From an uncultured Planctomycetia bacterium (GTDB lineage Bacteria; Omnitrophota; Gorgyraeia; S143-82): a stretch of DNA of 64,000 nt. Positions 5,481-36,082 of the stretch are shown here, piece by piece; the first letter of the stretch is position 1, and every line of letters starts with the position of its first letter. The DNA is taken from the NCBI GenBank assembly GCA_964469495.1, contig CAYXYY010000011.1, positions 30,845-94,844 of the forward strand, written 5' to 3'. The position numbers and the translations under genes were made by a program. Under the pieces are notes generated by a model that was not told the DNA's origin, ran no database searches, and was given only the letters and a program-made list of their open reading frames with translations.

Positions 5481-6133
5481 ATTATACAGTTATATATTCA
5501 AAACGAAGGACAATAGGCATGGAAATCAAGGACAATGGGGACTTGGTGATTAGGGCCCCATATAAGACTAAAAAAGGATATATTGAAGAGCTTGTTTTAA
5601 GGAACAGACTTTGGATAGAGAAAAAGAGAAAAGAGGTATTAAACAGGATTAGGTCCCGCCCGCCATTTTGTCAAAGAGAGGCATTGCCCTTTTTGGGAAG
5701 AGACTATCCTCTGGTGTTTAACTCAATGTCCAAAGGGGTGTATCTGTCCAATGATAAGGGTTTTATTCTGCCGAAAATAAGATGTGATGAACTGTATGAC
5801 TGCGTGAAGAAATGGTATATAGAACAGGCGAGAGAGCTTTTTTATTTCAGATGCAGATATTACATGATAAAATTTAACGCTAGATTCTTTTTCCGAATTA
5901 GCAATGCAAAAACATTGTGGGGTTCGTGCTCTTCAAAAAGCGTAATTAGTCTGGTGTGGAGATTAGTGATGGCCCCGCTTGATGTTATAGATTATGTTAT
6001 AGCGCATGAGATAGCCCATCTGAGATATAAAAGTCATTCCAAGTTATTTTGGAAGAGACTCGAGTCTATTTATCCCAATTACAGGGAAATGGACAGGTGG
6101 TTAAGAGATAAAGGTGGAGGGCTTTATTTATAA
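5477..6133 (+). CDS. YgjP-like metal-dependent hydrolase (DUF45 / M48-like, HExxH)
   Basis: A HEIAHL zinc motif lies near the C-terminus, preceded by ...WGSCS.... The length and layout fit the YgjP/DUF45 family. Confidence 0.7.
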   Translation: MNYTVIYSKRRTIGMEIKDNGDLVIRAPYKTKKGYIEELVLRNRLWIEKKRKEVLNRIRSRPPFCQREALPFLGRDYPLVFNSMSKGVYLSNDKGFILPKIRCDELYDCVKKWYIEQARELFYFRCRYYMIKFNARFFFRISNAKTLWGSCSSKSVISLVWRLVMAPLDVIDYVIAHEIAHLRYKSHSKLFWKRLESIYPNYREMDRWLRDKGGGLYL

Positions 6134-6295
6134 TTATAAAGGATGGCCGATGCGTTTATTTCGCGTTCTCTCTATCCATGGATAATTAGCCTTGCCAAAT
6201 ATATTTTGTTGTACGTGAATTTGTTCTCATGCAGTACGGTGGCTCATCTGGCGGCGGAGGACGGCAATTAATCAATTTATTTGACTATATTCATC

Positions 6296-6325
6296 AAAAA
6301 AGTTAACAAAAATAATTAACTTTTT
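6296..6325. promoter_or_regulatory. Perfect 10-bp inverted repeat AAAAAGTTAA-N9-TTAACTTTTT centred about 27 bp upstream of the hspR -35 box. It is a candidate regulator-binding site, or a weak bidirectional hairpin ending the ygjP-like gene.
   Basis: Read directly in the sequence. The arms at 6297-6306 and 6316-6325 are exact reverse complements. Confidence 0.4.
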
Positions 6326-6336
6326 GAATTTTTTGC

Positions 6337-6364
6337 TTGACAGGCAGGTGTTTTTGAGTAAAAT
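6337..6364 (+). promoter_or_regulatory. Sigma70-like promoter of the hspR-clpB...dnaJ operon: TTGACA (6337-6342), a 16-bp spacer, TAAAAT (6359-6364)
   Basis: The hexamers match consensus and the next gene starts at 6409. Confidence 0.6.
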
Positions 6365-6365
6365 A

Positions 6366-6392
6366 TTAGCAGAAAGAGTTTGAGAGTGCTAT
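6366..6392 (+). promoter_or_regulatory. Degenerate CIRCE-like element (HrcA operator geometry 9-N9-9): TTAGCAgaa-agagtttga-GAGTGCTAt
   Basis: The CIRCE consensus is TTAGCACTC-N9-GAGTGCTAA. The left arm matches 6/9 and the right arm 8/9 with exact 9-nt spacing. It sits immediately downstream of the -10 box. Confidence 0.45.
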
Positions 6393-6408
6393 TTTGAGGT
6401 GAGGTGAT

Positions 6409-6699
6409 ATGCGAAGAAAGCGATATCCTGTGTTGGAGCAGATAGATCCCGACGCACCGGTGTATGTGATTAGTGTGGTTAGCAGTATGGTTGGTCTGCC
6501 CCAGTGGACGTTAAGGGCATTGGATAGAGAAGGGATTGTATGCGCAAAGAGGAGCAATGGTTCTAATGGCAGGAGGGTGTATTGTTTTAAAGATATAAAG
6601 AAACTGGAATACGTGCGTTACCTTATGCAGGAAAGAGGGGTTAACCTTGAAGGCATAAAGGTAATTTTAGAGATAAAGGAGGATGATAGCAATGCTTAA
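6409..6699 (+). CDS. hspR: MerR-family heat-shock repressor HspR
   Basis: A 96-aa MerR-type HTH protein ([26 protein letters not shown]) sits directly upstream of and overlapping clpB. That is the classical HspR context. Confidence 0.75.
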
Positions 6700-9289
6700 T
6701 ATGGATAAATTTACTATAAAGGCCCAAGAGGCTATTCAATCTGCTTTGCAGCAGGCCCAATCCAAAGGCCATCAGGAATTGGGTGTGGAGCATCTTGCTC
6801 TTGCCCTGCTTACTCAGGAAGAGGGGATCGTGCCTGCTGTGCTTTCTAAGATGGGGATTTCTGTGAAACCTGTTGTTGCTGATGTTGATGCCCTGCTTGA
6901 GAAAAGGCCGCAGGTTCAAGGTACCGGCGGCAATGTTTATATGTCCGGTGAACTTAATACCGTGCTTGCGGATTGTGAAAAACAAGCGGCTCAATTAAAG
7001 GATTCTTATATAAGCACAGAACATTTGTTTTTGTCTTTGCTTAATTTGCCTGTTTCAAGCGGGCTTGTAAATGCATTTGCAAAGTATGGACTAAACAAAG
7101 ATGCCTTTTTAAAGGCATTGATGGATTTGCGTGGCGGGCAGAACGTATCCGACCAGAATCCTGAAGATAAGTTTGATGCTTTATCAAAATATGGCAGGGA
7201 CCTGACTGCATTGGCAAGGGCAGGCAAATTGGATCCTGTTATAGGCCGTGATGAGGAGATAAGGCGTGTGATACAGGTCTTATCCAGAAGGACAAAGAAT
7301 AATCCGGTATTGATAGGAGAACCCGGTGTTGGTAAGACGGCAATTGTGGAAGGTATTGCCCGCAGGATTGTTTCAGGAGATGTGCCAGAGGGGCTTAAAA
7401 ATAAGCGGTTAATCGCACTTGATATAGGTTCATTATTGGCTGGCGCAAAATACAGAGGTGAATTCGAGGACAGATTAAAGGCGGTATTAAAGGAGATAGA
7501 ATCCAAGGAAGGCCAAATTATACTTTTTATTGATGAAATACATACCCTTGTTGGCGCAGGGAAGGCCGATGGCGCTATAGATGCCGCCAATATGTTGAAG
7601 CCGGCTTTAGCAAGAGGAACTTTGCGTTGTATAGGCGCTACTACTTTGGATGAATATAGAAAGTATATAGAAAAGGATGCCGCTCTTGAAAGGCGGTTTC
7701 AACAGGTACTGGTAAAGGAGCCTTCAGTTGAAGATACTATTGCGATCTTAAGGGGATTGAAAGAAAGATATGAGGTGCATCACGGAGTTCGGATAAAGGA
7801 TTCTGCTTTGATTGCCGCGGCTGTGCTTTCTCATAGGTATATATCCGGCAGGTTTTTGCCTGATAAGGCAATAGATTTGATTGATGAGGCGGCTTCTAAA
7901 CTGCGTATAGAAATAGACAGCCGTCCTCAAGAGATTGATGAGCTGGAACGCAGGATCTTGCAGCTTGAAATAGAAAAACAGGCCTTGAAAAAGGAAACGG
8001 ATGCGGCATCAAAGGAGCGTTTGCAGAATATAGAAAAGGAATTGGCCCAGTTGAAAGAGCGTTCCGCCCAGTTGACTGCAAAATGGCAGGCGGAAAAGGC
8101 CATTATTATGGAAATTCGAAAGATAAAGGAAGAAATAGACGTCTTGCGCAATGAAGAGGCCTTGGCGCAAAGACGCGGGGAGCTTGAAAAGGCCGCTGAG
8201 ATTAGGTATGGGAAGATCCCTGCTCTTGAAGAGAAAATGCAACAGCAAAACAAGAGATTAGAGGAGATGAAAGAGAGTGGAAAACTCCTGCTCAAAGAAG
8301 AGGTTGATGATGAGGACATAGCTGCTATTGTTGCAAAGTGGACGGGCATTCCTGTTTCCCGTTTGATGGAAGGAGAAGCAGAGAAATTGGTGCATATGGA
8401 AGACCGCCTTAAACAGCGCATTATAGGCCAAGACGAGGCCGTTGCCCTTATATCATCTGCTATTAGGCGGGCGCGTGCCGGCATATCTGATCCAAACAGG
8501 CCGATAGGCTCTTTCTTGTTTATAGGTCCGACAGGTGTTGGAAAGACGGAGCTTGCCCGGTCTTTGGCAGACTTTTTGTTTAACGACGAGAAAGATATGA
8601 TAAGGATAGATATGTCAGAGTATATGGAAAAACATAGCGTCTCGCGGCTTATAGGAGCGCCTCCCGGTTATGTTGGATACGACGAGGGCGGCCAGCTTAC
8701 AGAACAGGTTCGCAGAAGGCCGTATTCTGTTGTATTGTTTGATGAAATTGAAAAGGCGCATCCTGACGTGTTTAATGTGCTTTTGCAGATAATGGATGAA
8801 GGCCGTTTGACAGATGGACAAGGCCATATAGTCAATTTCAAAAACACGGTTATCATTATGACGTCTAATATAGGCAGTGAGTATTTTAATGAAGATATGC
8901 CTTTGGATAAGGTGAAAGAGAATATACATCGGCAATTACGGTCTCGTTTTAAGCCTGAGTTCTTAAACAGAATAGACGAGATAGTGATATTTAATAAACT
9001 TTCGACGGAAGATATCGTTAAGATAGCCGAAATCCAGTTTGCTTATCTGCAAAAGAGGTTGTCTGATAGGAAGATAACTTTGGTAATAGACGAGGACGTT
9101 AAACGGTATATTGCCGAAGTTGGATATGATGTTAATTATGGGGCAAGGCCGCTGAAACGCGCAGTGCAGAGATTGTTGTCCGACAAACTGGCTTTGCTCA
9201 TTTTAGAGGGAAAGATAAAAGGAGGAGATCTCGTAAAGGCGACGCTTGGCCCTGACAAGGAAATAGAGTTTAGCGTTGAAAAACAATAA
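6683..9289 (+). CDS. clpB: ATP-dependent disaggregase ClpB
   Basis: It has the ClpB N-domain, two AAA+ modules ([13 protein letters not shown]...; [11 protein letters not shown]), a long coiled-coil M-domain, and is about 860 aa. Confidence 0.95.
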
Positions 9290-9299
9290 GGAGGCGAAT

Positions 9300-9632
9300 A
9301 TGTTTCAAATGGCGTTTCATTTTAAGGACATAGAATCTGATTGGGAAAACAGGCTCAAGGATATATTTGAAAAGGAAAGAGATGTTGTTATAAAGAAACA
9401 CCTTGGCCGTTTGGCGGATAAAAAGGTTTATTTTCATATAACAGTTGAGAAAAATCCGCATAAAAACGAATATATCGTTGGTATTGCCTTGTATCTGCCT
9501 TCTAAGAGTTTGTATGCCAGACGCAAGAGTAAGGCTGCGGATGTTGCGATGAATGCCGCAATAAATAGCCTTGTCAGGCAAGTGGATAAATACAGAGATA
9601 AGTTTATCCACAAGAAGGGAGCAAGGAGGTAA
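9300..9632 (+). CDS. hpf: Ribosome hibernation-promoting factor / RaiA (YfiA) family protein, short form
   Basis: The segment ...HITVEKNPHKNEYIVGIALYLPSKSLYARRKSKAADVAMNAAINSLVRQVDKYRDK... aligns with the YfiA/HPF pattern. A strong SD (AAGGAGG) lies 5 nt upstream of the ATG at 9300. The listed 9276 start lies inside clpB. Confidence 0.55.
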   Translation: MFQMAFHFKDIESDWENRLKDIFEKERDVVIKKHLGRLADKKVYFHITVEKNPHKNEYIVGIALYLPSKSLYARRKSKAADVAMNAAINSLVRQVDKYRDKFIHKKGARR

Positions 9633-9635
9633 TAG

Positions 9636-10367
9636 ATGAGTCCTAGGGAAGCAAAGGTTAAAAAAGACGAGGTTTTGGCAATGATTGTCGAGGCCTATTT
9701 TGAAACAGGTGCGCCTGTTTCCTCGATGGCTTTGGTGGAACGGGGCATGAAATGTTCCTCTGCGACTATAAGGAATATTATGGCTGAATTTATTGACGAA
9801 GGATTTCTGGCTCAGCCACATACGTCTGCTGGGCGGATTCCTACTGCCAAGGCTTATAGGTATTATTTGGATTTTCTTATGGAAAGGGCGCATGAGGATT
9901 TGGAATCTGATCTGCCGAACTTTGCTTCCCGGACGGCCTCATTAGATGGATTGATTAAACATATTGCCGATTCAGTTTCAGAGTTGATGCATCAAACCGG
10001 GATGAGCGCATTTTGGGGGCATAGAGACGTGTATCTGCATGGAAGAAACTATCTGATTGATTATTCGGAACTTCAGGATATAGACAAGCTCAGAGAGATA
10101 TTTACTTTTTTGGAGGATGAGCAATCCGTACACGAGATTTTATGGCGGGATATAAAAGACCGCGTAAATGTTTTCGTGGGCAATGAGATTGGAAGGCCGG
10201 AAGTTTCAGAGTGTTCCTTGATTATCTCTGCCTGTGACGTTGGCGATGGCAAGGAAATAAGGATAGGCATTATAGGGCCTATGAGAATGGATTATGGCCG
10301 CAACCTGAGTCTTCTGGAAAGGTTATCTGAGGAGGTGGAGGGTATATGCAAAAGAATAGCCCTATGA
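9636..10367 (+). CDS. hrcA: Heat-inducible transcription repressor HrcA (short, about 243 aa)
   Basis: The N-terminus ...SSMALVERGMKCSSATIRNIMAEFIDEGFLAQPHTSAGRIPTAKAYRYY is the diagnostic HrcA winged-helix segment. The C-terminus has ...IGIIGPMRMDYGRNLSLLE. It is followed by grpE-dnaK-dnaJ. Confidence 0.8.
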   Translation: MSPREAKVKKDEVLAMIVEAYFETGAPVSSMALVERGMKCSSATIRNIMAEFIDEGFLAQPHTSAGRIPTAKAYRYYLDFLMERAHEDLESDLPNFASRTASLDGLIKHIADSVSELMHQTGMSAFWGHRDVYLHGRNYLIDYSELQDIDKLREIFTFLEDEQSVHEILWRDIKDRVNVFVGNEIGRPEVSECSLIISACDVGDGKEIRIGIIGPMRMDYGRNLSLLERLSEEVEGICKRIAL

Positions 10368-10918
10368 AAGAAGACAAGAGAGAGGATGAAGTTGTTATGA
10401 AAAAAGATAATGAATCTGTTTCTATATCTCGCGAGGAATATGAGGAATTGTTAAAGGCCCGTGATGAGAGAAAGGAGTGGCAGGAACTTGCCGCGCGCAT
10501 AAAAGCGGATTATGAAAATGCGCGTAAACGCCTTGAGAGAGAAAAGGAAGAGTTTATAAGATTTGCGCAATATAACGTGCTTAAGGATTTGCTTTCAGTG
10601 GTGGATGACTTTGAACGGGCGCGTTCCGCGGCAGTTGAAACGCAGGACATAGAGAGTCTGGTAAAAGGTTTGGATATGATTGGAAAGGATCTTCAATCTC
10701 TTTTAAAACGCTATGGCGTTGAAGAAATAGATGCTCATGGGAGAAAATTTGACCCGGAGTTGCACGAAGCCATGTTGCAGGAGGAGACTGAAGATGCTGA
10801 GCCGTTTACTGTTTTGGAAGTTCTTCAAAAGGGATATAAGATGCACGATAAGGTCTTAAGGCCGGTTCGTGTAAAGGTTAGTGTGGCAGCTTCTGAGGAA
10901 GAAGCAGGTGAAAAATAA
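10346..10918 (+). CDS. grpE: Nucleotide exchange factor GrpE
   Basis: The coiled-coil N-terminus and C-terminal GrpE fold motifs (...FIRFAQYNVLKDLLSVVDDFERA...GVEEIDAHGRKFDPELHEAM...) sit between hrcA and dnaK. Confidence 0.9.
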   Translation: MQKNSPMKEDKREDEVVMKKDNESVSISREEYEELLKARDERKEWQELAARIKADYENARKRLEREKEEFIRFAQYNVLKDLLSVVDDFERARSAAVETQDIESLVKGLDMIGKDLQSLLKRYGVEEIDAHGRKFDPELHEAMLQEETEDAEPFTVLEVLQKGYKMHDKVLRPVRVKVSVAASEEEAGEK

Positions 10919-10952
10919 ACTTTGAGGATAATTTTTAAGGAGGTGTTGTGTT

Positions 10953-12827
10953 ATGGCAAAGGCAATAGGAATTGACTTAGGTACATCTAATTCTGCAGCA
11001 GCAATTATGGAAGGAGGACAACCCAAAATCATTCCTTCCGCAGAGGGGACAACTGTAGGTGGAGGGAAGGCTTTTCCTTCCTACGTGGCTTTTACCAAGG
11101 ATGGACAATTATTGGTTGGAGAGCCTGCAAGGCGTCAGGCGGCAATCAATCCGGAAGGGACTATAACTCGTGCAAAGAGGTATATGGGGACGGACCATAA
11201 ATTTAATATCTATGGCAAAGAATATACTCCTCAACAGATCTCTGCATTCATCTTGCAGAAAATCAAAAAGGACGCAGAGGCCTATCTTGGAGAACCTGTT
11301 ACAGAGGCGGTGATAACAGTTCCCGCTTATTTCAATGACAACCAAAGACAGGCCACTAAAGACGCGGGCGAGATAGCCGGCCTAAAGGTCCTAAGGATTA
11401 TAAACGAACCTACGGCTGCATGTCTTGCGTTTGGATTGGATAAACTTGACAAGAATTTAAAAATTCTCGTCTTTGATTTGGGCGGAGGCACGTTGGACGT
11501 TACTATAATGGAGATGTCCAATGGTGTTTTTGAGGTCCTTTCTACGAGTGGAGATACGCAGCTTGGCGGTACGGATATGGACATCGTTTTGGCAGATTAT
11601 ATTGTTGCCGAGTTTAAGAAAAAGGAAGGTGTTGATTTAAAGCAGGATAAGATGGCGTGGCAGAGGATTGTTGAGGCCGCAGAGAAGGCAAAGATAGAGC
11701 TCTCTTCAACGCTTGAAACAGATATCAATCTGCCGTTTATTACAGCAGACGCATCCGGGCCAAAGCACCTGACGATGACGATTAACAGGGCCAAATTAGA
11801 GGAATTGGTTTCTCCTATCGTTGATAGGTGTAAGGCCCCTATCGAGCGCGCTGTTAAGGATGCAGGCCTTGGGATAGACGGCATCGACAAGATTATCATG
11901 GTTGGCGGGCCTACACGTATGCCTATTGTGCAGAAGGTAGTCGAGGATTACGTCGGTAAAAAGATAGAACGCGGAATAGATCCTATGGAATGTGTTGCTA
12001 TGGGCGCGAGCATACAGGCAGCTGTTTTAAAAGGAGAGGTAAAAGACGTCTTGCTTTTGGATGTAACACCCCTATCTTTGGGTATAGAAACTATGGGAGG
12101 AGTTTTTACGAAGATAATAGAGCGCAATACCACTATACCTACTAAAAAGAGCCAGATATTTACTACCGCTGAGGATAATCAAAGCGCGGTAACCATTAGG
12201 GTTCTGCAGGGAGAAAGGCCTATGGCCAATGACAATGTGGAACTTGGCAGGTTTGATCTGGTTGGTATTCCGCCTGCTCCGCGGGGGGTCCCCAAGATAG
12301 AGGTTACGTTTGACATAGATTCCGATGGCATTGTTCATGTCTCTGCCAAAGACGTGGCAACAGGCAAGGAGCAGTCCATTAGGATTACTGCGCCGAATAA
12401 ACTCTCCAAGGAGGATATTGACCGTATGGTCAAGGAAGCTGATCAGTTTGCAGAGGCTGACAGAAAGCGCAAAGAGGAAGTTGAGTTAAAAAATCAGGCT
12501 GATCAGCTCGTTTATACTACAGAGAAGGCATTGAAAGATGTCGGAGATAAGATCAGTGCTGAAGAAAAGGCAAAGGTGGAAGGGCATCTGCTTGAACTCA
12601 AGAATGCCATAAAAGGCGGTTCCATAGATGAAATAAAACAAAAGATGGATACGCTTATGCAGGCCTCTCACAAGTTAGCTGAGGAGATGTATAAAAAGGC
12701 TCAAGCTGAGTCAGCCTCTTCTGATGCCTCCGCAGAGCCTCAAACCGGCGCAACTGCGGAAGAGACAGGCAGCAATGACTCTGAAAAGGGAGACGATGTG
12801 ATAGATGCTGAGTTTAAGGAAGAGTAA
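10953..12827 (+). CDS. dnaK: Molecular chaperone DnaK (Hsp70)
   Basis: [27 protein letters not shown] and the Hsp70 C-terminal lid are present. It is about 624 aa, with a small insertion after the first beta-hairpin ([27 protein letters not shown]). Confidence 0.97.
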
Positions 12828-12852
12828 TCTCTTTGCGGGCATTGCATAAATA

Positions 12853-12878
12853 GCAGGCGCAGTTTTCCCTGCGCCTGC
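12853..12878 (+). terminator. GC-rich 10-bp perfect hairpin (GCAGGCGCAG-ttttcc-CTGCGCCTGC) between dnaK and dnaJ with no downstream U-tract. It is probably a partial terminator or mRNA-stability hairpin setting the dnaK:dnaJ ratio.
   Basis: The inverted repeat was read directly. It lies 26 nt after the dnaK stop. Confidence 0.4.
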
Positions 12879-12903
12879 ACAATTATATTAAGGAGTTTTG
12901 TGT

Positions 12904-14055
12904 ATGGCAGAAAACAAGGATTATTACAGAATATTGGGAGTAGACAGAAACGCAACGCCTGAGCAGATAAAGGCTGCTTACAGGAAACTGGCTATGCAAT
13001 TTCATCCGGATAGAAATCCGGAAGACAAAAAAGCCGCTGAAGAAAAGTTTAAGGAGATATCAGAGGCCTATGAGGTCTTGAGCGATGAGAAAAAACGCAA
13101 ATTATATGACCAGTATGGATATGAAGCAATGAAGCAGTCTTTTGGAGAGGGCGGATTTAACTGGTCTAATTTTTCACATTATCAGGATTTAGAGGATATA
13201 TTTGGGGATTTCGGATTAGACGATTTGTTGAGAGGATTTGGTTTCGGAGATGTATTTGGCGGTTATGGCCGTTCGTCTGGCCGTAGTAGAAGGGGAAGGG
13301 ATCAGGAGATAGAGGTAAGGATTTCTTTAAAAGAGGCCTATATGGGTGTTAATAAAACAATAACAATTAGACGTACGGAAACGTGTCCTGAATGCAATGG
13401 TTCAGGAAGCGCAAAAGGAAGCGCCCCTGTTGTCTGTCCGCAATGTAAGGGCAGAGGAGCTGTTGTGCAAAGGGCAGGCTTTTTTACTATGCAGACGACT
13501 TGTCCGCGTTGCGGCGGTAAGGGACAGGTTATTAATAATCCCTGTCCAAATTGTCGAGGGACAGGCAAGGTTATGGCAACGAAGAAGATTACAGTAAAGA
13601 TCCCGGCTGGCATAGAGGATGGCACTCATCTCAGGCTTGCAGGTGAAGGTGAGCAGGTTTCCGGCGGGCGGCACGGAGATCTCTATGTATTGGTAAGGGT
13701 GATGCCGGATAAAACCTTTGCGCGCAAAGGCAAAGATATATATACGAAGGCAAAGATATCTATGTATCAGGCAGCATTGGGCACAGAGATAGAGGTGCCT
13801 ACTCTTGCTGGCAAAGTGAATATGCGTGTGCCTGCGGGAGTACAGCCCGGGGCAAAATTGCGCTTAAAGGGAAAGGGTATGCCTGTTTTGCGAGGCAGTG
13901 GTTATGGCGATGAATTTGTTGAAATAATCGTACAAGTTCCGAAAGGCTTGTCTCAGAAGGAGCGTTCATTGCTTGAACAAATAGCGCAAATGAAAGGGGA
14001 GCCCTTTCTGACAGAAGAAGGCTTAAGCGACAAAATAAAGAGATTTTTCTCTTAA
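12904..14055 (+). CDS. dnaJ: Co-chaperone DnaJ (type I, with CxxCxGxG zinc-finger repeats)
   Basis: The J-domain (YYRILGV...HPDRN), a G/F region, four CxxCxG repeats and the C-terminal domain are present. An SD (AAGGAG) lies 8 nt upstream of the ATG at 12904. Confidence 0.95.
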
Positions 14056-14066
14056 CGTAATATGAT

Positions 14067-15251
14067 ATGGCTGTTTTTTCATTCTTAACATGGAAATTCT
14101 TTACAAAGGGCCAAAAGGGATTCCTTTCCTTTATGTCTAGTATTTCTATTATAGGTGTTGCTATCGGTGTTGCTTCTCTTATTATCGTTGTCTCTGTTAT
14201 GGCGGGATTTAGCAAGGAATTAGAGCGCAAGATCTTATCAGGCAATCCGCACATAATCATAGAAACAGGCGACGTAATAGAAAATTATTCAAAACTAGTT
14301 AAAGAAATAAGAACAAAGGCGTATGTCAAAAGAGTTGCTCCAATGGTTAGTAGTCAGGTCTTTTTACAAAACGGAAATACCATATTAACCGTTTTGATGC
14401 GAGGGATTCCCAATGATAAGAACGCTATCATGGATTTTGCCTCTTTTGTAAGAACAGGAGAATTTGATTTATCAGGCAACGGGGCATTGATAGGCGAACA
14501 AATGCTTAAAGATTACGGATATGCTATTGGGGATAAAATAACCCTTCTATCTCCGATAACCAGTGAGCCGTACACATTTGAAGTAAGAGGAATTTTTAAG
14601 ACAGGCCTGTATGATTACGATGCATCTGTTGTCATCGTGGACATAAACAAGGCTTCTGAAATGTTAATTATGCCAAATAGTGCAAATATGATCGCCGTTG
14701 ACTTGACAAATCCGCACAAAGCAGAGGATGCAAAGTCAGAGCTCTTAAAGACGCTCTCGAAAGAATATCCTTTCCTGCACATTCGTACGTGGATAGAGAC
14801 TAATAAAAACCTGTTTGCCGCGTTGAAATTGGAACGATTAGTTATGTTTTTGATATTGACCCTGATAGTTATTGTCGCCTCTTTCAACATAGCCAGTTCT
14901 TTGATGGTCTTGGTTACTGAAAAAACAAGGGAAATAGGGATATTAAAGGCTTTAGGCGTGAAAGACAGGACAATATATGTGGTTTTCTTGTCAGTTGGCC
15001 TGTTAATCGGAGTTATAGGCGCCTTTATAGGCAGTGTTTTTGCGGTTATCGCTTGTGTTCTGATGGATAAATACAAATTGGTGAGCCTGCCTCCACAGAT
15101 ATATTATATAGACCACCTTCCTGTATATCTTTCATGGCATACCGTTATTATAGTATTTGGCGTCGCTGTTTTGATAAATTTGGTATCAGCCCTTTATCCT
15201 GCAAGAAGGGCAAGCCGGCTTTCGGCAATAGAGGCTATTCGTTATGAATGA
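14067..15251 (+). CDS. lolE: LolC/LolE-family (FtsX/MacB-type) ABC transporter permease. No cognate ATPase is adjacent.
   Basis: It has an N-terminal TM, a large periplasmic domain and a C-terminal FtsX-like 3-TM bundle, about 394 aa. This is the typical lipoprotein-release permease layout. Confidence 0.7.
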   Translation: MAVFSFLTWKFFTKGQKGFLSFMSSISIIGVAIGVASLIIVVSVMAGFSKELERKILSGNPHIIIETGDVIENYSKLVKEIRTKAYVKRVAPMVSSQVFLQNGNTILTVLMRGIPNDKNAIMDFASFVRTGEFDLSGNGALIGEQMLKDYGYAIGDKITLLSPITSEPYTFEVRGIFKTGLYDYDASVVIVDINKASEMLIMPNSANMIAVDLTNPHKAEDAKSELLKTLSKEYPFLHIRTWIETNKNLFAALKLERLVMFLILTLIVIVASFNIASSLMVLVTEKTREIGILKALGVKDRTIYVVFLSVGLLIGVIGAFIGSVFAVIACVLMDKYKLVSLPPQIYYIDHLPVYLSWHTVIIVFGVAVLINLVSALYPARRASRLSAIEAIRYE

Positions 15252-15373: not shown

Positions 15374-15402
15374 TTGACAAGGGACTATTGTTTATTATAA
15401 AA
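15374..15402 (+). promoter_or_regulatory. Sigma70-like promoter for tRNA-Glu: TTGACA (15374-15379), a 16-17-bp spacer, TATAAA(A)
   Basis: A consensus -35 and a near-consensus -10 sit about 20 nt upstream of the tRNA 5' end. Confidence 0.5.
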
Positions 15403-15419
15403 TACACACATAGATGTTT

Positions 15420-15494
15420 GGCCCCATCGTCTAGTTCGGCCTAGGACGCATGGTTCTCAGCCATGAAACAGGGGTTCGAATCCCCTTGGGGCTA
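15420..15494 (+). tRNA. tRNA-Glu (anticodon CUC)
   Basis: The cloverleaf folds by hand. The acceptor stem is GGCCCCA/TGGGGCT with a G1-U72 wobble. The D-arm is GTCTAGTTCGGCCTAGGAC. The anticodon stem is CATGG/CCATG with loop TTCTCAG. The T-arm is AGGGG-TTCGAAT-CCCCT. The discriminator is A and no CCA is encoded. Confidence 0.85.
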
Positions 15495-15524
15495 TTTTGA
15501 CGTGGATAAAAAAGGGGGGTGTCA

Positions 15525-35557: not shown

Positions 35558-36082
35558 CTTAACCCCCTTTGTCGTCTGTCCTTAACTTGCCCCTTTTGGC
35601 TATAAGTTAGAATAAAACCATGCTTCCCAAGGGCCCTCCTTTTTAGTATCCTCTTCCTCACCTCCTTTCTTGCCAAGTGGCAATAAAAAAACCTGTCCGG
35701 CAGCCAAAACGCCAAACAGGTTTTCTATAATAGCCGGCAACTGGCTGCCCAGTTCTTGTCCCCCCTCAGGAACAAGCCTTGGGGCCCTATAGCTTTGCGC
35801 CCCCGCCTTTCGGCGGGTTTGCCCTTTTCGGTTAGAAAAGCCATAATTTCAAAGAGCACCTTTCTTCCTGCATACATAACTATATCTTATCCCCCTGTTT
35901 TGTCAACTTTTTATTTTTGCCCCCAAACCAAAATGCATAACCATTTGTCAAAAACCCATTTATAAAGTATAGCACATGTATGGATAAAGGCAAGTTTATT
36001 TGTCTGTTGATTTTAGCGGCCATGTATGATACTTTATCCCAAGTATTTATTTGCAAATCCGTTTAAATAGGAGGTTTTTACG

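Follow-up and report, generated by a model that had tools for sequence, protein, structure and literature searches.

HspR, HrcA and CIRCE, an inverted repeat that controls chaperone expression, are textbook parts of bacterial heat-shock control, and in the wirings known so far the two repressors are encoded in separate operons. We describe here a heat-shock cluster from an uncultured bacterium in which an hspR-like gene and hrcA lie on one strand together with clpB, grpE, dnaK, dnaJ and a divergent gene of the HPF family. The cluster is located in a 64,000-nucleotide (nt) stretch of contig CAYXYY010000011.1, hereinafter designated the window.

In the heptacistronic dnaK operon of Bacillus subtilis, known from work of the Schumann laboratory, a sigma-A-type promoter is followed directly by a canonical CIRCE, and HrcA is autoregulated. 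The window resembles this operon in having a promoter followed by a CIRCE-like site, the order hrcA-grpE-dnaK-dnaJ, a stem-loop after dnaK, a gene following dnaJ and, plausibly, HrcA autoregulation. Other than that, the B. subtilis operon contains no hspR, clpB or hpf, encodes a full-length HrcA of about 340 residues, and has an internal promoter before dnaJ.

For dual control by HspR and HrcA, good descriptions already exist from Helicobacter pylori and Campylobacter jejuni, where the two proteins co-repress groESL and hrcA-grpE-dnaK (PMC6032397, PMC7464140). As in the window, both repressor families occur in one genome and no sigma-32 is needed, hrcA heads hrcA-grpE-dnaK with a CIRCE-like site at the core promoter (an autoregulatory arrangement), clpB falls within the heat-shock regulon, and HrcA is of a short form. 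However, hspR of these species lies in a separate cbpA-hspR-helicase operon that only HspR regulates, HspR represses the hrcA operon from sites 5' of the core promoter that resemble HAIR, the inverted repeat associated with HspR, and HrcA does not regulate hspR. Because hspR lies in an operon regulated only by HspR, HspR stands upstream of HrcA in these species. In the window, by contrast, hspR is the first cistron of a cluster that also contains hrcA, the sole recognisable operator is CIRCE-like, and there is no HAIR-like site; thus, the hierarchy may be reversed.

In Streptomyces and Mycobacterium (references in PMC6032397 and PMC7464140), hspR is the last gene of dnaK-grpE-dnaJ-hspR and its product binds HAIR (CTTGAGT-N7-ACTCAAG) at its own promoter, while hrcA lies elsewhere and controls groES/groEL. 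The window is similar in that hspR is grouped with dnaK, grpE and dnaJ, clpB is tied to HspR, and hrcA is present in the genome. It differs in that hspR comes first, HAIR is missing, and hrcA belongs to the same cluster.

The seven-gene cluster and its promoter

Seven open reading frames occupy positions 6409-14055 of the forward strand and were identified with Pfam and NCBIfam. Start codons were set by the gene calls on identical public contigs and by the sequence itself.

6409-6699, forward strand: hspR-like gene; MerR family, 96 amino acids (aa); best NCBIfam family HspR (NF047375), 74 bits against a cut-off of 105
6692-9289, forward strand: clpB disaggregase; TIGR03346, 1349 bits against a cut-off of 1232
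9300-9632, forward strand: divergent HPF/YfiA (S30AE)-like gene; 110 aa; Pfam S30AE 23.0 against a cut-off of 23.7
9636-10367, forward strand: hrcA, short form; 243 aa; Pfam HrcA (PF01628) 88 bits against a cut-off of 22; TIGR00331 188.6 against a cut-off of 197.2
10346-10918, forward strand: grpE; Pfam GrpE, E = 1e-47
10953-12827, forward strand: dnaK; NF001413, 911 bits, above the cut-off
12904-14055, forward strand: dnaJ; TIGR02349, 427 bits, above the cut-off

These frames and their profile matches bear out the seven contiguous genes on one strand that a preliminary description had named from the letters, with the reservation that "hspR" and "hpf" are family-like names, the scores of both falling below the curated cut-offs. 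The packing is tight. Specifically, with the gene-caller starts, the junctions measure -8, +10, +3, -22, +34 and +76 nt in gene order; the dnaK-dnaJ junction becomes +70 if dnaJ starts at the TTG at 12898, in agreement with the range of -22 to +70 given previously. The end of hspR and the start of clpB share 8 nt (ATGCTTAA), and grpE overlaps hrcA by 22 nt. Each junction of the cluster has a ribosome-binding site, for instance GGAGG 5 nt 5' of the grpE start and AAGGAG 8 nt 5' of the dnaJ ATG at 12904.

Two features define the region immediately 5' of hspR:

6337-6364, forward strand: sigma-70-type promoter; CTTGACA, 16-nt spacer, TAAAAT; 11/12 consensus positions
6366-6392, no strand assigned: predicted CIRCE-variant operator; TTAGCAGAA-N9-GAGTGCTAT, beginning 1 nt 3' of the -10 element

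In a consensus scan, TTGACA-16-TAAAAT at 6337-6364 is the sole forward-strand site before the cluster with 11 of 12 matches. Promoter-like sites inside the cluster reach 10/12 at most, and their number (22) is that expected from shuffled sequence (21.6). The earlier statement that there is one convincing promoter, 5' of hspR, therefore holds.

The site at 6366-6392 has four mismatches to the CIRCE consensus TTAGCACTC-N9-GAGTGCTAA (cited in PMC7464140). For this reason it was missed by a search allowing up to three mismatches, which found no canonical CIRCE in the whole 64-kb window; it surfaced at four mismatches and by comparing relatives. It is the only site in the window with four or fewer mismatches, with about 0.25 expected per 64 kb, and such a site would rarely be placed beside a promoter by chance. 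In an alignment of five lineages, namely the window, its sister species and the loci L091, L093 and L096, CTTGAC, the position of the -10 element and the half-sites TTAGCAGA and GAGTGCTA are invariant, whereas spacers and flanks vary. Because the half-sites are conserved while the spacer varies, the seemingly degenerate CIRCE is better described as a clade-specific, conserved variant of a putative operator at the operon promoter. Lying 1 nt after the -10 element, it is evidence in favour of autoregulation by HrcA and of an action of HrcA on hspR, both of which are plausible on sequence grounds.

A further feature is located 5' of the -35 element:

6297-6325, no strand assigned: AT-rich inverted repeat; AAAAAGTTAA-N9-TTAACTTTTT; weak candidate operator or UP-like region

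In the sister species this repeat keeps its left arm and its A/T tracts, but its right arm matches at only 7/10 positions, and the repeat is missing from the clade without hspR; as an operator for HspR, it is thus a weak candidate only. Neither Rfam nor folding revealed any structured RNA in the spacer 6120-6340.

Comparison with Omnitrophota relatives

Metagenome-assembled genomes of Candidatus Omnitrophota are the source of the closest homologues both of HrcA and of the HspR-like protein, and the labels of these homologues suggest that the window belongs to this phylum. When GTDB species genomes were scanned, 265 proved to encode an HspR-like relative beside chaperone genes, almost all of them labelled Omnitrophota. 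We retrieved 80 of these loci and mapped their gene orders by tblastn; the genes are always on one strand. A metagenome scan with the HspR of the window returned only one irrelevant locus.

Two gene orders predominate. hspR-clpB-hrcA-grpE-dnaK-dnaJ is found in 27 complete loci and hspR-hrcA-grpE-dnaK-dnaJ in 17, together 44 among the loci long enough for the full cluster, and most of these are split by internal operators and a promoter. Most other retrieved loci are truncated forms of the two orders, hsp20 is inserted after hspR in some, and three Armatimonadota loci have hspR-dnaK-dnaJ. The arrangement hspR-(hsp20)-(clpB)-hrcA-grpE-dnaK-dnaJ is therefore the norm in the phylum and not rare. 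Having both repressors together, called uncommon in the preliminary description, is not so in this phylum, although the literature searched contained no published description of hspR and hrcA in one Omnitrophota cluster.

The relatives (L003-L082 and L100/L101) share with the window the one-strand order, including the optional hsp20, clpB and hpf-like gene, as well as a short HrcA and a small HspR-like protein. They differ from it in their regulatory elements. hspR of the relatives has its own, highly conserved promoter, CTTGACAAA...TATGTTATA with a 17-nt spacer, which matches at least 10 of 12 positions in 73 of 78 loci and is accompanied by the palindrome TTAGAATATCTAA. A first canonical CIRCE lies 3' of the hspR stop in 71/78 loci; in 62 of these 71 it begins 16-18 nt past the stop, behind a run of 7-8 T (for example, L081 10244-10286). 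Before hrcA, a 10-11/12 promoter (TTGACA-16-TAAAAT) ends exactly 6 nt 5' of a second CIRCE, TTAGCATTC-N9-GAGTGCTAA, in 35 of 38 loci. The window has instead one promoter and one CIRCE variant, both before hspR, and the other elements are missing.

We also looked for a promoter before the first CIRCE of the relatives, and found that the best sigma-70 matches (7-9/12) are scattered in position, with none consistent. The T-run and the first CIRCE may act as an HrcA-dependent roadblock or gate; alternatively, a promoter may lie within the CIRCE, with the T-run serving as an UP element.

The palindrome TTAGAATATCTAA is near-invariant about 100 nt 5' of hspR in L003-L082 (for example, L081 9892-9904), and lies about 20 nt 5' of the -35 element of the hspR promoter in 54/78 relatives. 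It has symmetric variants such as TTAGTTAAACTAA, adjoins a second AT-rich palindrome, TAATAAATTTTATTA, likewise about 20 nt 5' of the -35 element, and has almost no other copies in the 20-kb loci. Judged by sequence, it ranks first among candidate operators for the HspR-like protein.

The lineages nearest to the window show how its layout relates to that norm. In the sister species, HspR, HrcA and the HPF-like protein are 77%, 80% and 75% identical to those of the window; the same seven-gene block is present, including the 8-nt hspR/clpB overlap, while the flanking genes differ. The only 11/12 promoter of the sister is also 5' of hspR, in the same place, and there too the promoter-like sites within the cluster are at chance level. 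In an intermediate clade (L091, L093 and L096; HrcA 52-56% identical), clpB, the HPF-like gene, hrcA, grpE, dnaK and dnaJ have no hspR in front of them, and CTTGACA-16-TAnnAT lies 5' of clpB, followed after 1-2 nt by TTAGCAGA(A/C)-N9-GAGTGCTAA. To judge from the aligned sequences, the window promoter is clearly homologous to this clpB promoter/CIRCE module; hspR is found between promoter/CIRCE and clpB only in the window and the sister. Derivation from the hspR or the hrcA promoter of the relatives was also considered; by position matrices the window promoter fits neither, and it agrees with the hrcA-type promoter in spacer length (16 nt) and in its -10 hexamer (TAAAAT).

The more distant L100 and L101 contain hspR, T-run/CIRCE, hsp20, clpB, S30AE, promoter plus CIRCE, and hrcA-grpE-dnaK-dnaJ. 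In L100, a 12/12 promoter and a CIRCE lie within the 54-nt hpf-hrcA gap; in the window clade the corresponding gap is 2-13 nt long and contains no promoter/CIRCE module. The HPF-like gene thus coexists with the internal hrcA promoter in L100/L101; the loss of this promoter is specific to the window clade. The missing hrcA module, easily recognised in the relatives, is positive evidence for one transcription unit. The placement of hspR between promoter/CIRCE and clpB may be ancestral or derived, given the distance between the window clade and the 80 relatives (HrcA 32-35% identity).

HrcA itself has a form common to the whole group. The N-terminal winged helix aligns to residues 19-104 of Thermotoga maritima HrcA (1STZ) with E = 7e-15, and the motifs SSATIRN and GRIPT..YRYY are kept. 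The match to TIGR00331 falls into two stretches, and the protein is without about 90 central residues of 1STZ, which apparently correspond to an inserted domain. Relatives of the L003-L101 group have HrcA proteins of 240-253 aa, consistent with a short form that is clade-wide. The NCBIfam model of short HrcA (264 positions) matches the window protein at the N-terminus only. The short form raises the question of how HrcA dimerises and senses stress.

The window clade and L100/L101 retain the HPF-like gene at its place between clpB and hrcA; none of the 80 GTDB loci (L003-L082) contained it in a search with the window sequence and nine further family members. Its product scores 24.9 against the TIGR00741 cut-off of 40.9, and HMMER, run exhaustively against 1.8 billion representative proteins, recovered 24 homologues. 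All ten homologues tested pass PF02482 with 25-46 bits, and the family has the motif EKNPHK...YLP. An AlphaFold2 model (mean predicted local distance difference test score 77) has a beta-alpha-beta-beta-alpha(-alpha) layout, compared with beta-alpha-beta-beta-beta-alpha in the HPF fold, and the top PDB matches in Foldseek are pY/HPF/YfiA proteins, at a weak level (E ~3e-3, template modelling score ~0.3). We accept 9300-9632 as a divergent gene of the HPF family. Its location inside a heat-shock operon hints that chaperone induction is coupled to ribosome silencing. Distant homologues P0026, P0028, P0029 and P0034 are unusual proteins of 308-374 aa, in which S30AE is fused to a Sigma70 region 4 / PhyR-sigma-like domain.

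One transcription unit or several

The region is a compact, lineage-specific form, and a modest variant, of the heat-shock cluster typical of Omnitrophota, and its best reading, which we consider probable on balance, is a single operon controlled by HrcA. Specifically, the sigma-70 promoter at 6337-6364 would give rise to a single mRNA from the hspR-like gene through a stem-loop to dnaJ, and possibly into a lolC/E-like gene. HrcA translated from this mRNA would, at normal temperature, occupy 6366-6392 and block initiation or early elongation. Protein-folding stress would inactivate HrcA, as expected from the known behaviour of the HrcA family (PMC6032397, PMC8533110), and ClpB and the chaperones would be induced jointly with the HPF-like and HspR-like proteins. 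The circuit would be a negative autoregulation of HrcA that also sets the level of the HspR-like protein.

Several observations weigh against a single HrcA-controlled operon. Scans for consensus promoters miss non-canonical ones. HrcA of the window shares only 32-35% identity with the HrcA of relatives that use canonical CIRCE, and the left half of the CIRCE variant deviates (TTAGCAGAA vs TTAGCACTC), such that binding by this divergent, short HrcA is a prediction. HAIR at up to three mismatches occurs 0 times in the window, with about 2 expected by chance. The stretch from the upstream ygjP-like gene to the promoter showed no terminator, and transcription may enter the cluster from that side. 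A large fraction of transcripts could end at the strong stem-loop that precedes dnaJ, and the hairpin at the same place in the sister species tops the list of terminator-like sites in that locus. Finally, the sister (L085 3425-3456) has a 14-bp GC-rich hairpin of -27 kcal/mol in its 71-nt spacer between clpB and the HPF-like gene, a spacer that measures 10 nt in the window; hairpin punctuation within the operon therefore varies among close relatives.

The sister's strong hairpin after clpB would fit a division of the cluster, in which non-consensus internal promoters, for example at the 3' end of clpB, in the hpf-like gene or 5' of dnaK, drive hrcA-grpE-dnaK-dnaJ apart from hspR-clpB. The internal hrcA promoter of most relatives points the same way, and weak sites are present in the window at 9276-9304 (TTGAAA-17-TATGTT, 9/12), 8829-8856 and 10533-10562. 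However, such sites are no commoner than in shuffled sequence, the site at 9276 overlaps the start codon of the hpf-like gene, the window contains no other CIRCE or CIRCE variant, the 10-nt and 3-nt gaps are too small for the module of the relatives, and the hairpin of the sister is followed by about 30 nt without any promoter-like site. We therefore regard divided units as unlikely. The split into conventional units that the preliminary description had set against its own proposal is present in the relatives, while the window has neither an above-chance internal promoter nor an hrcA promoter/CIRCE module.

The role of the HspR-like protein is a separate matter. It has the N-terminal helix-turn-helix of the MerR type (Pfam MerR_1, PF13411, E = 9e-14), and NF047375 is its best family by about 50 bits, the next family scoring about 23 bits. 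HspR is likewise the top family for its ten closest homologues (best E-value 9e-24). At 85-97 aa, the proteins have little C-terminal region past MerR_1. In 69 of the 80 related loci, as in the window, the gene is linked to clpB, hrcA or dnaK; the other 11 loci end soon after hspR or show hspR alone.

These features have to be weighed against the possibility that the protein does not repress this operon as a heat-shock regulator but is an activator, an unrelated regulator or a DnaK/ClpB-associated factor, in which case "two repressors" would be an artefact of naming. The score of 74 bits lies well under the HspR cut-off of 105, the protein is short past MerR_1, HAIR is absent not only from the window but, at up to two mismatches, from all 82 loci, and the palindrome TTAGAATATCTAA, near-invariant in the relatives, has been lost from the window lineage. 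On the other side, HspR is by far the best family, the linkage to chaperone genes is widespread, the three Armatimonadota genomes with hspR-dnaK-dnaJ recall the HspR/dnaK linkage of Actinobacteria, and the start/stop coupling with clpB suggests co-expression. We consider this alternative unlikely. Because neither HAIR nor a conserved palindrome is present, HspR control of hspR and hrcA is unsupported, and the target of the HspR-like protein is probably elsewhere, or an unrecognised site 5' of the -35 element. The proposal that each repressor regulates itself and the other thus has sequence evidence for HrcA, which is predicted from the CIRCE variant to act on hrcA and hspR, and is unsupported for HspR, for which there is no HAIR or other recognisable operator.

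The last question concerns the 3' part of the cluster, where two features are relevant:

12853-12878, forward strand: GC-rich stem-loop in the dnaK-dnaJ spacer; GCAGGCGCAG-TTTTCC-CTGCGCCTGC; perfect 10-bp stem
14067-15251, forward strand: lolC/E-like ATP-binding cassette (ABC) permease gene; Pfam MacB_PCD and FtsX; TIGR02212, 309 bits, below its cut-off

The stem-loop alone folds with -21.6 kcal/mol, and no shuffle of the 76-nt dnaK-dnaJ spacer folds as well as the native sequence. On the forward strand it is followed by ACAATTATATT, with no U-tract. Between the hairpin and dnaJ there are only 25 nt, ribosome-binding site included, which leaves no room for a dnaJ promoter. At the same place, the sister species forms a hairpin that is unrelated in sequence and has a T-rich tail. 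Hairpins reaching -12 kcal/mol or lower occur in 27 of the 59 dnaK-dnaJ spacers examined (the window lineage counted), and the dnaK-dnaJ gap is 10 nt or less in 15 other loci. By analogy with the B. subtilis dnaK operon, the stem-loop is probably an attenuator or a 3'-end stabiliser that sets the dnaK:dnaJ ratio. It would lower dnaJ relative to dnaK or stabilise the upstream transcript, and dnaJ expression would depend on read-through past the hairpin.

That the stem-loop is instead a terminator, with a heat-shock unit from hspR to dnaK and with dnaJ and the lolC/E-like gene separate, would accord with its stable GC-rich stem, with the T-rich tail of the sister hairpin and with the recurrence of hairpins in the longer spacers of relatives, but it is quite improbable given ACAATTATATT in place of a U-tract, the lack of promoter room before dnaJ, and the 15 loci with gaps of at most 10 nt, which indicate that co-transcription is ancestral.

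The lolC/E-like gene starts 11 nt 3' of dnaJ, no terminator-like site was found between the two, and neither the sister species nor other relatives have this gene linked to dnaJ. Because of this short distance, the cluster probably runs past 14055. As to the extent of the unit, the seven genes stand as described at the outset, and an end at 14055 probably does not; together, the stem-loop and the lolC/E-like gene blur the 3' end.

Returning to the HrcA-controlled operon, a bolder extension would combine two proposals: that HrcA, through the single CIRCE variant, is the master switch over HspR in the window lineage, reversing the hierarchy of Helicobacter and Campylobacter and reducing two tiers to one autoregulated operon, and that the T-run/CIRCE gate of the phylum passes hspR transcription into clpB/hrcA only when HrcA is inactive. 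We offer this combination as speculation with a low chance of being correct.

Neighbouring features and meaning for the lineage

The next clear transcription start past the heat-shock cluster and the lolC/E-like gene is that of tRNA-Glu(CTC) (15419-15495, forward strand), which has its own 11/12 promoter, TTGACA-18-TAAAAT, at 15374-15403. Within the cluster, DnaK (10953-12827) skips about 17-20 positions of the Hsp70 profile near residue 85. This gap resembles the N-terminal indel that marks some bacterial Hsp70 lineages, and the genome encodes Lol-type and secretin outer-membrane functions despite it. Farther away, on the reverse strand, a c-di-GMP-I-GGC riboswitch (35732-35832), which with 67 bits exceeds the Rfam gathering score, is found immediately 5' of a type IV pilin-like gene (35557-35114) with N_methyl and ComP_DUS domains, which suggests cyclic di-GMP control of this gene.

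Because all parts of the heat-shock cluster are known, the window represents a new variant and not a new system, and its impact is limited by the facts that the organisms are uncultured and that every component comes from a known family. What distinguishes the phylum is that it sets hspR directly 5' of hrcA-grpE-dnaK-dnaJ, and that one lineage appears to have fused all of these genes behind a single CIRCE-gated promoter. If this is true, Omnitrophota provide a natural experiment, in which close lineages have three, two or one module in a two-repressor circuit, and one such wiring may reverse the hierarchy of HspR over HrcA.

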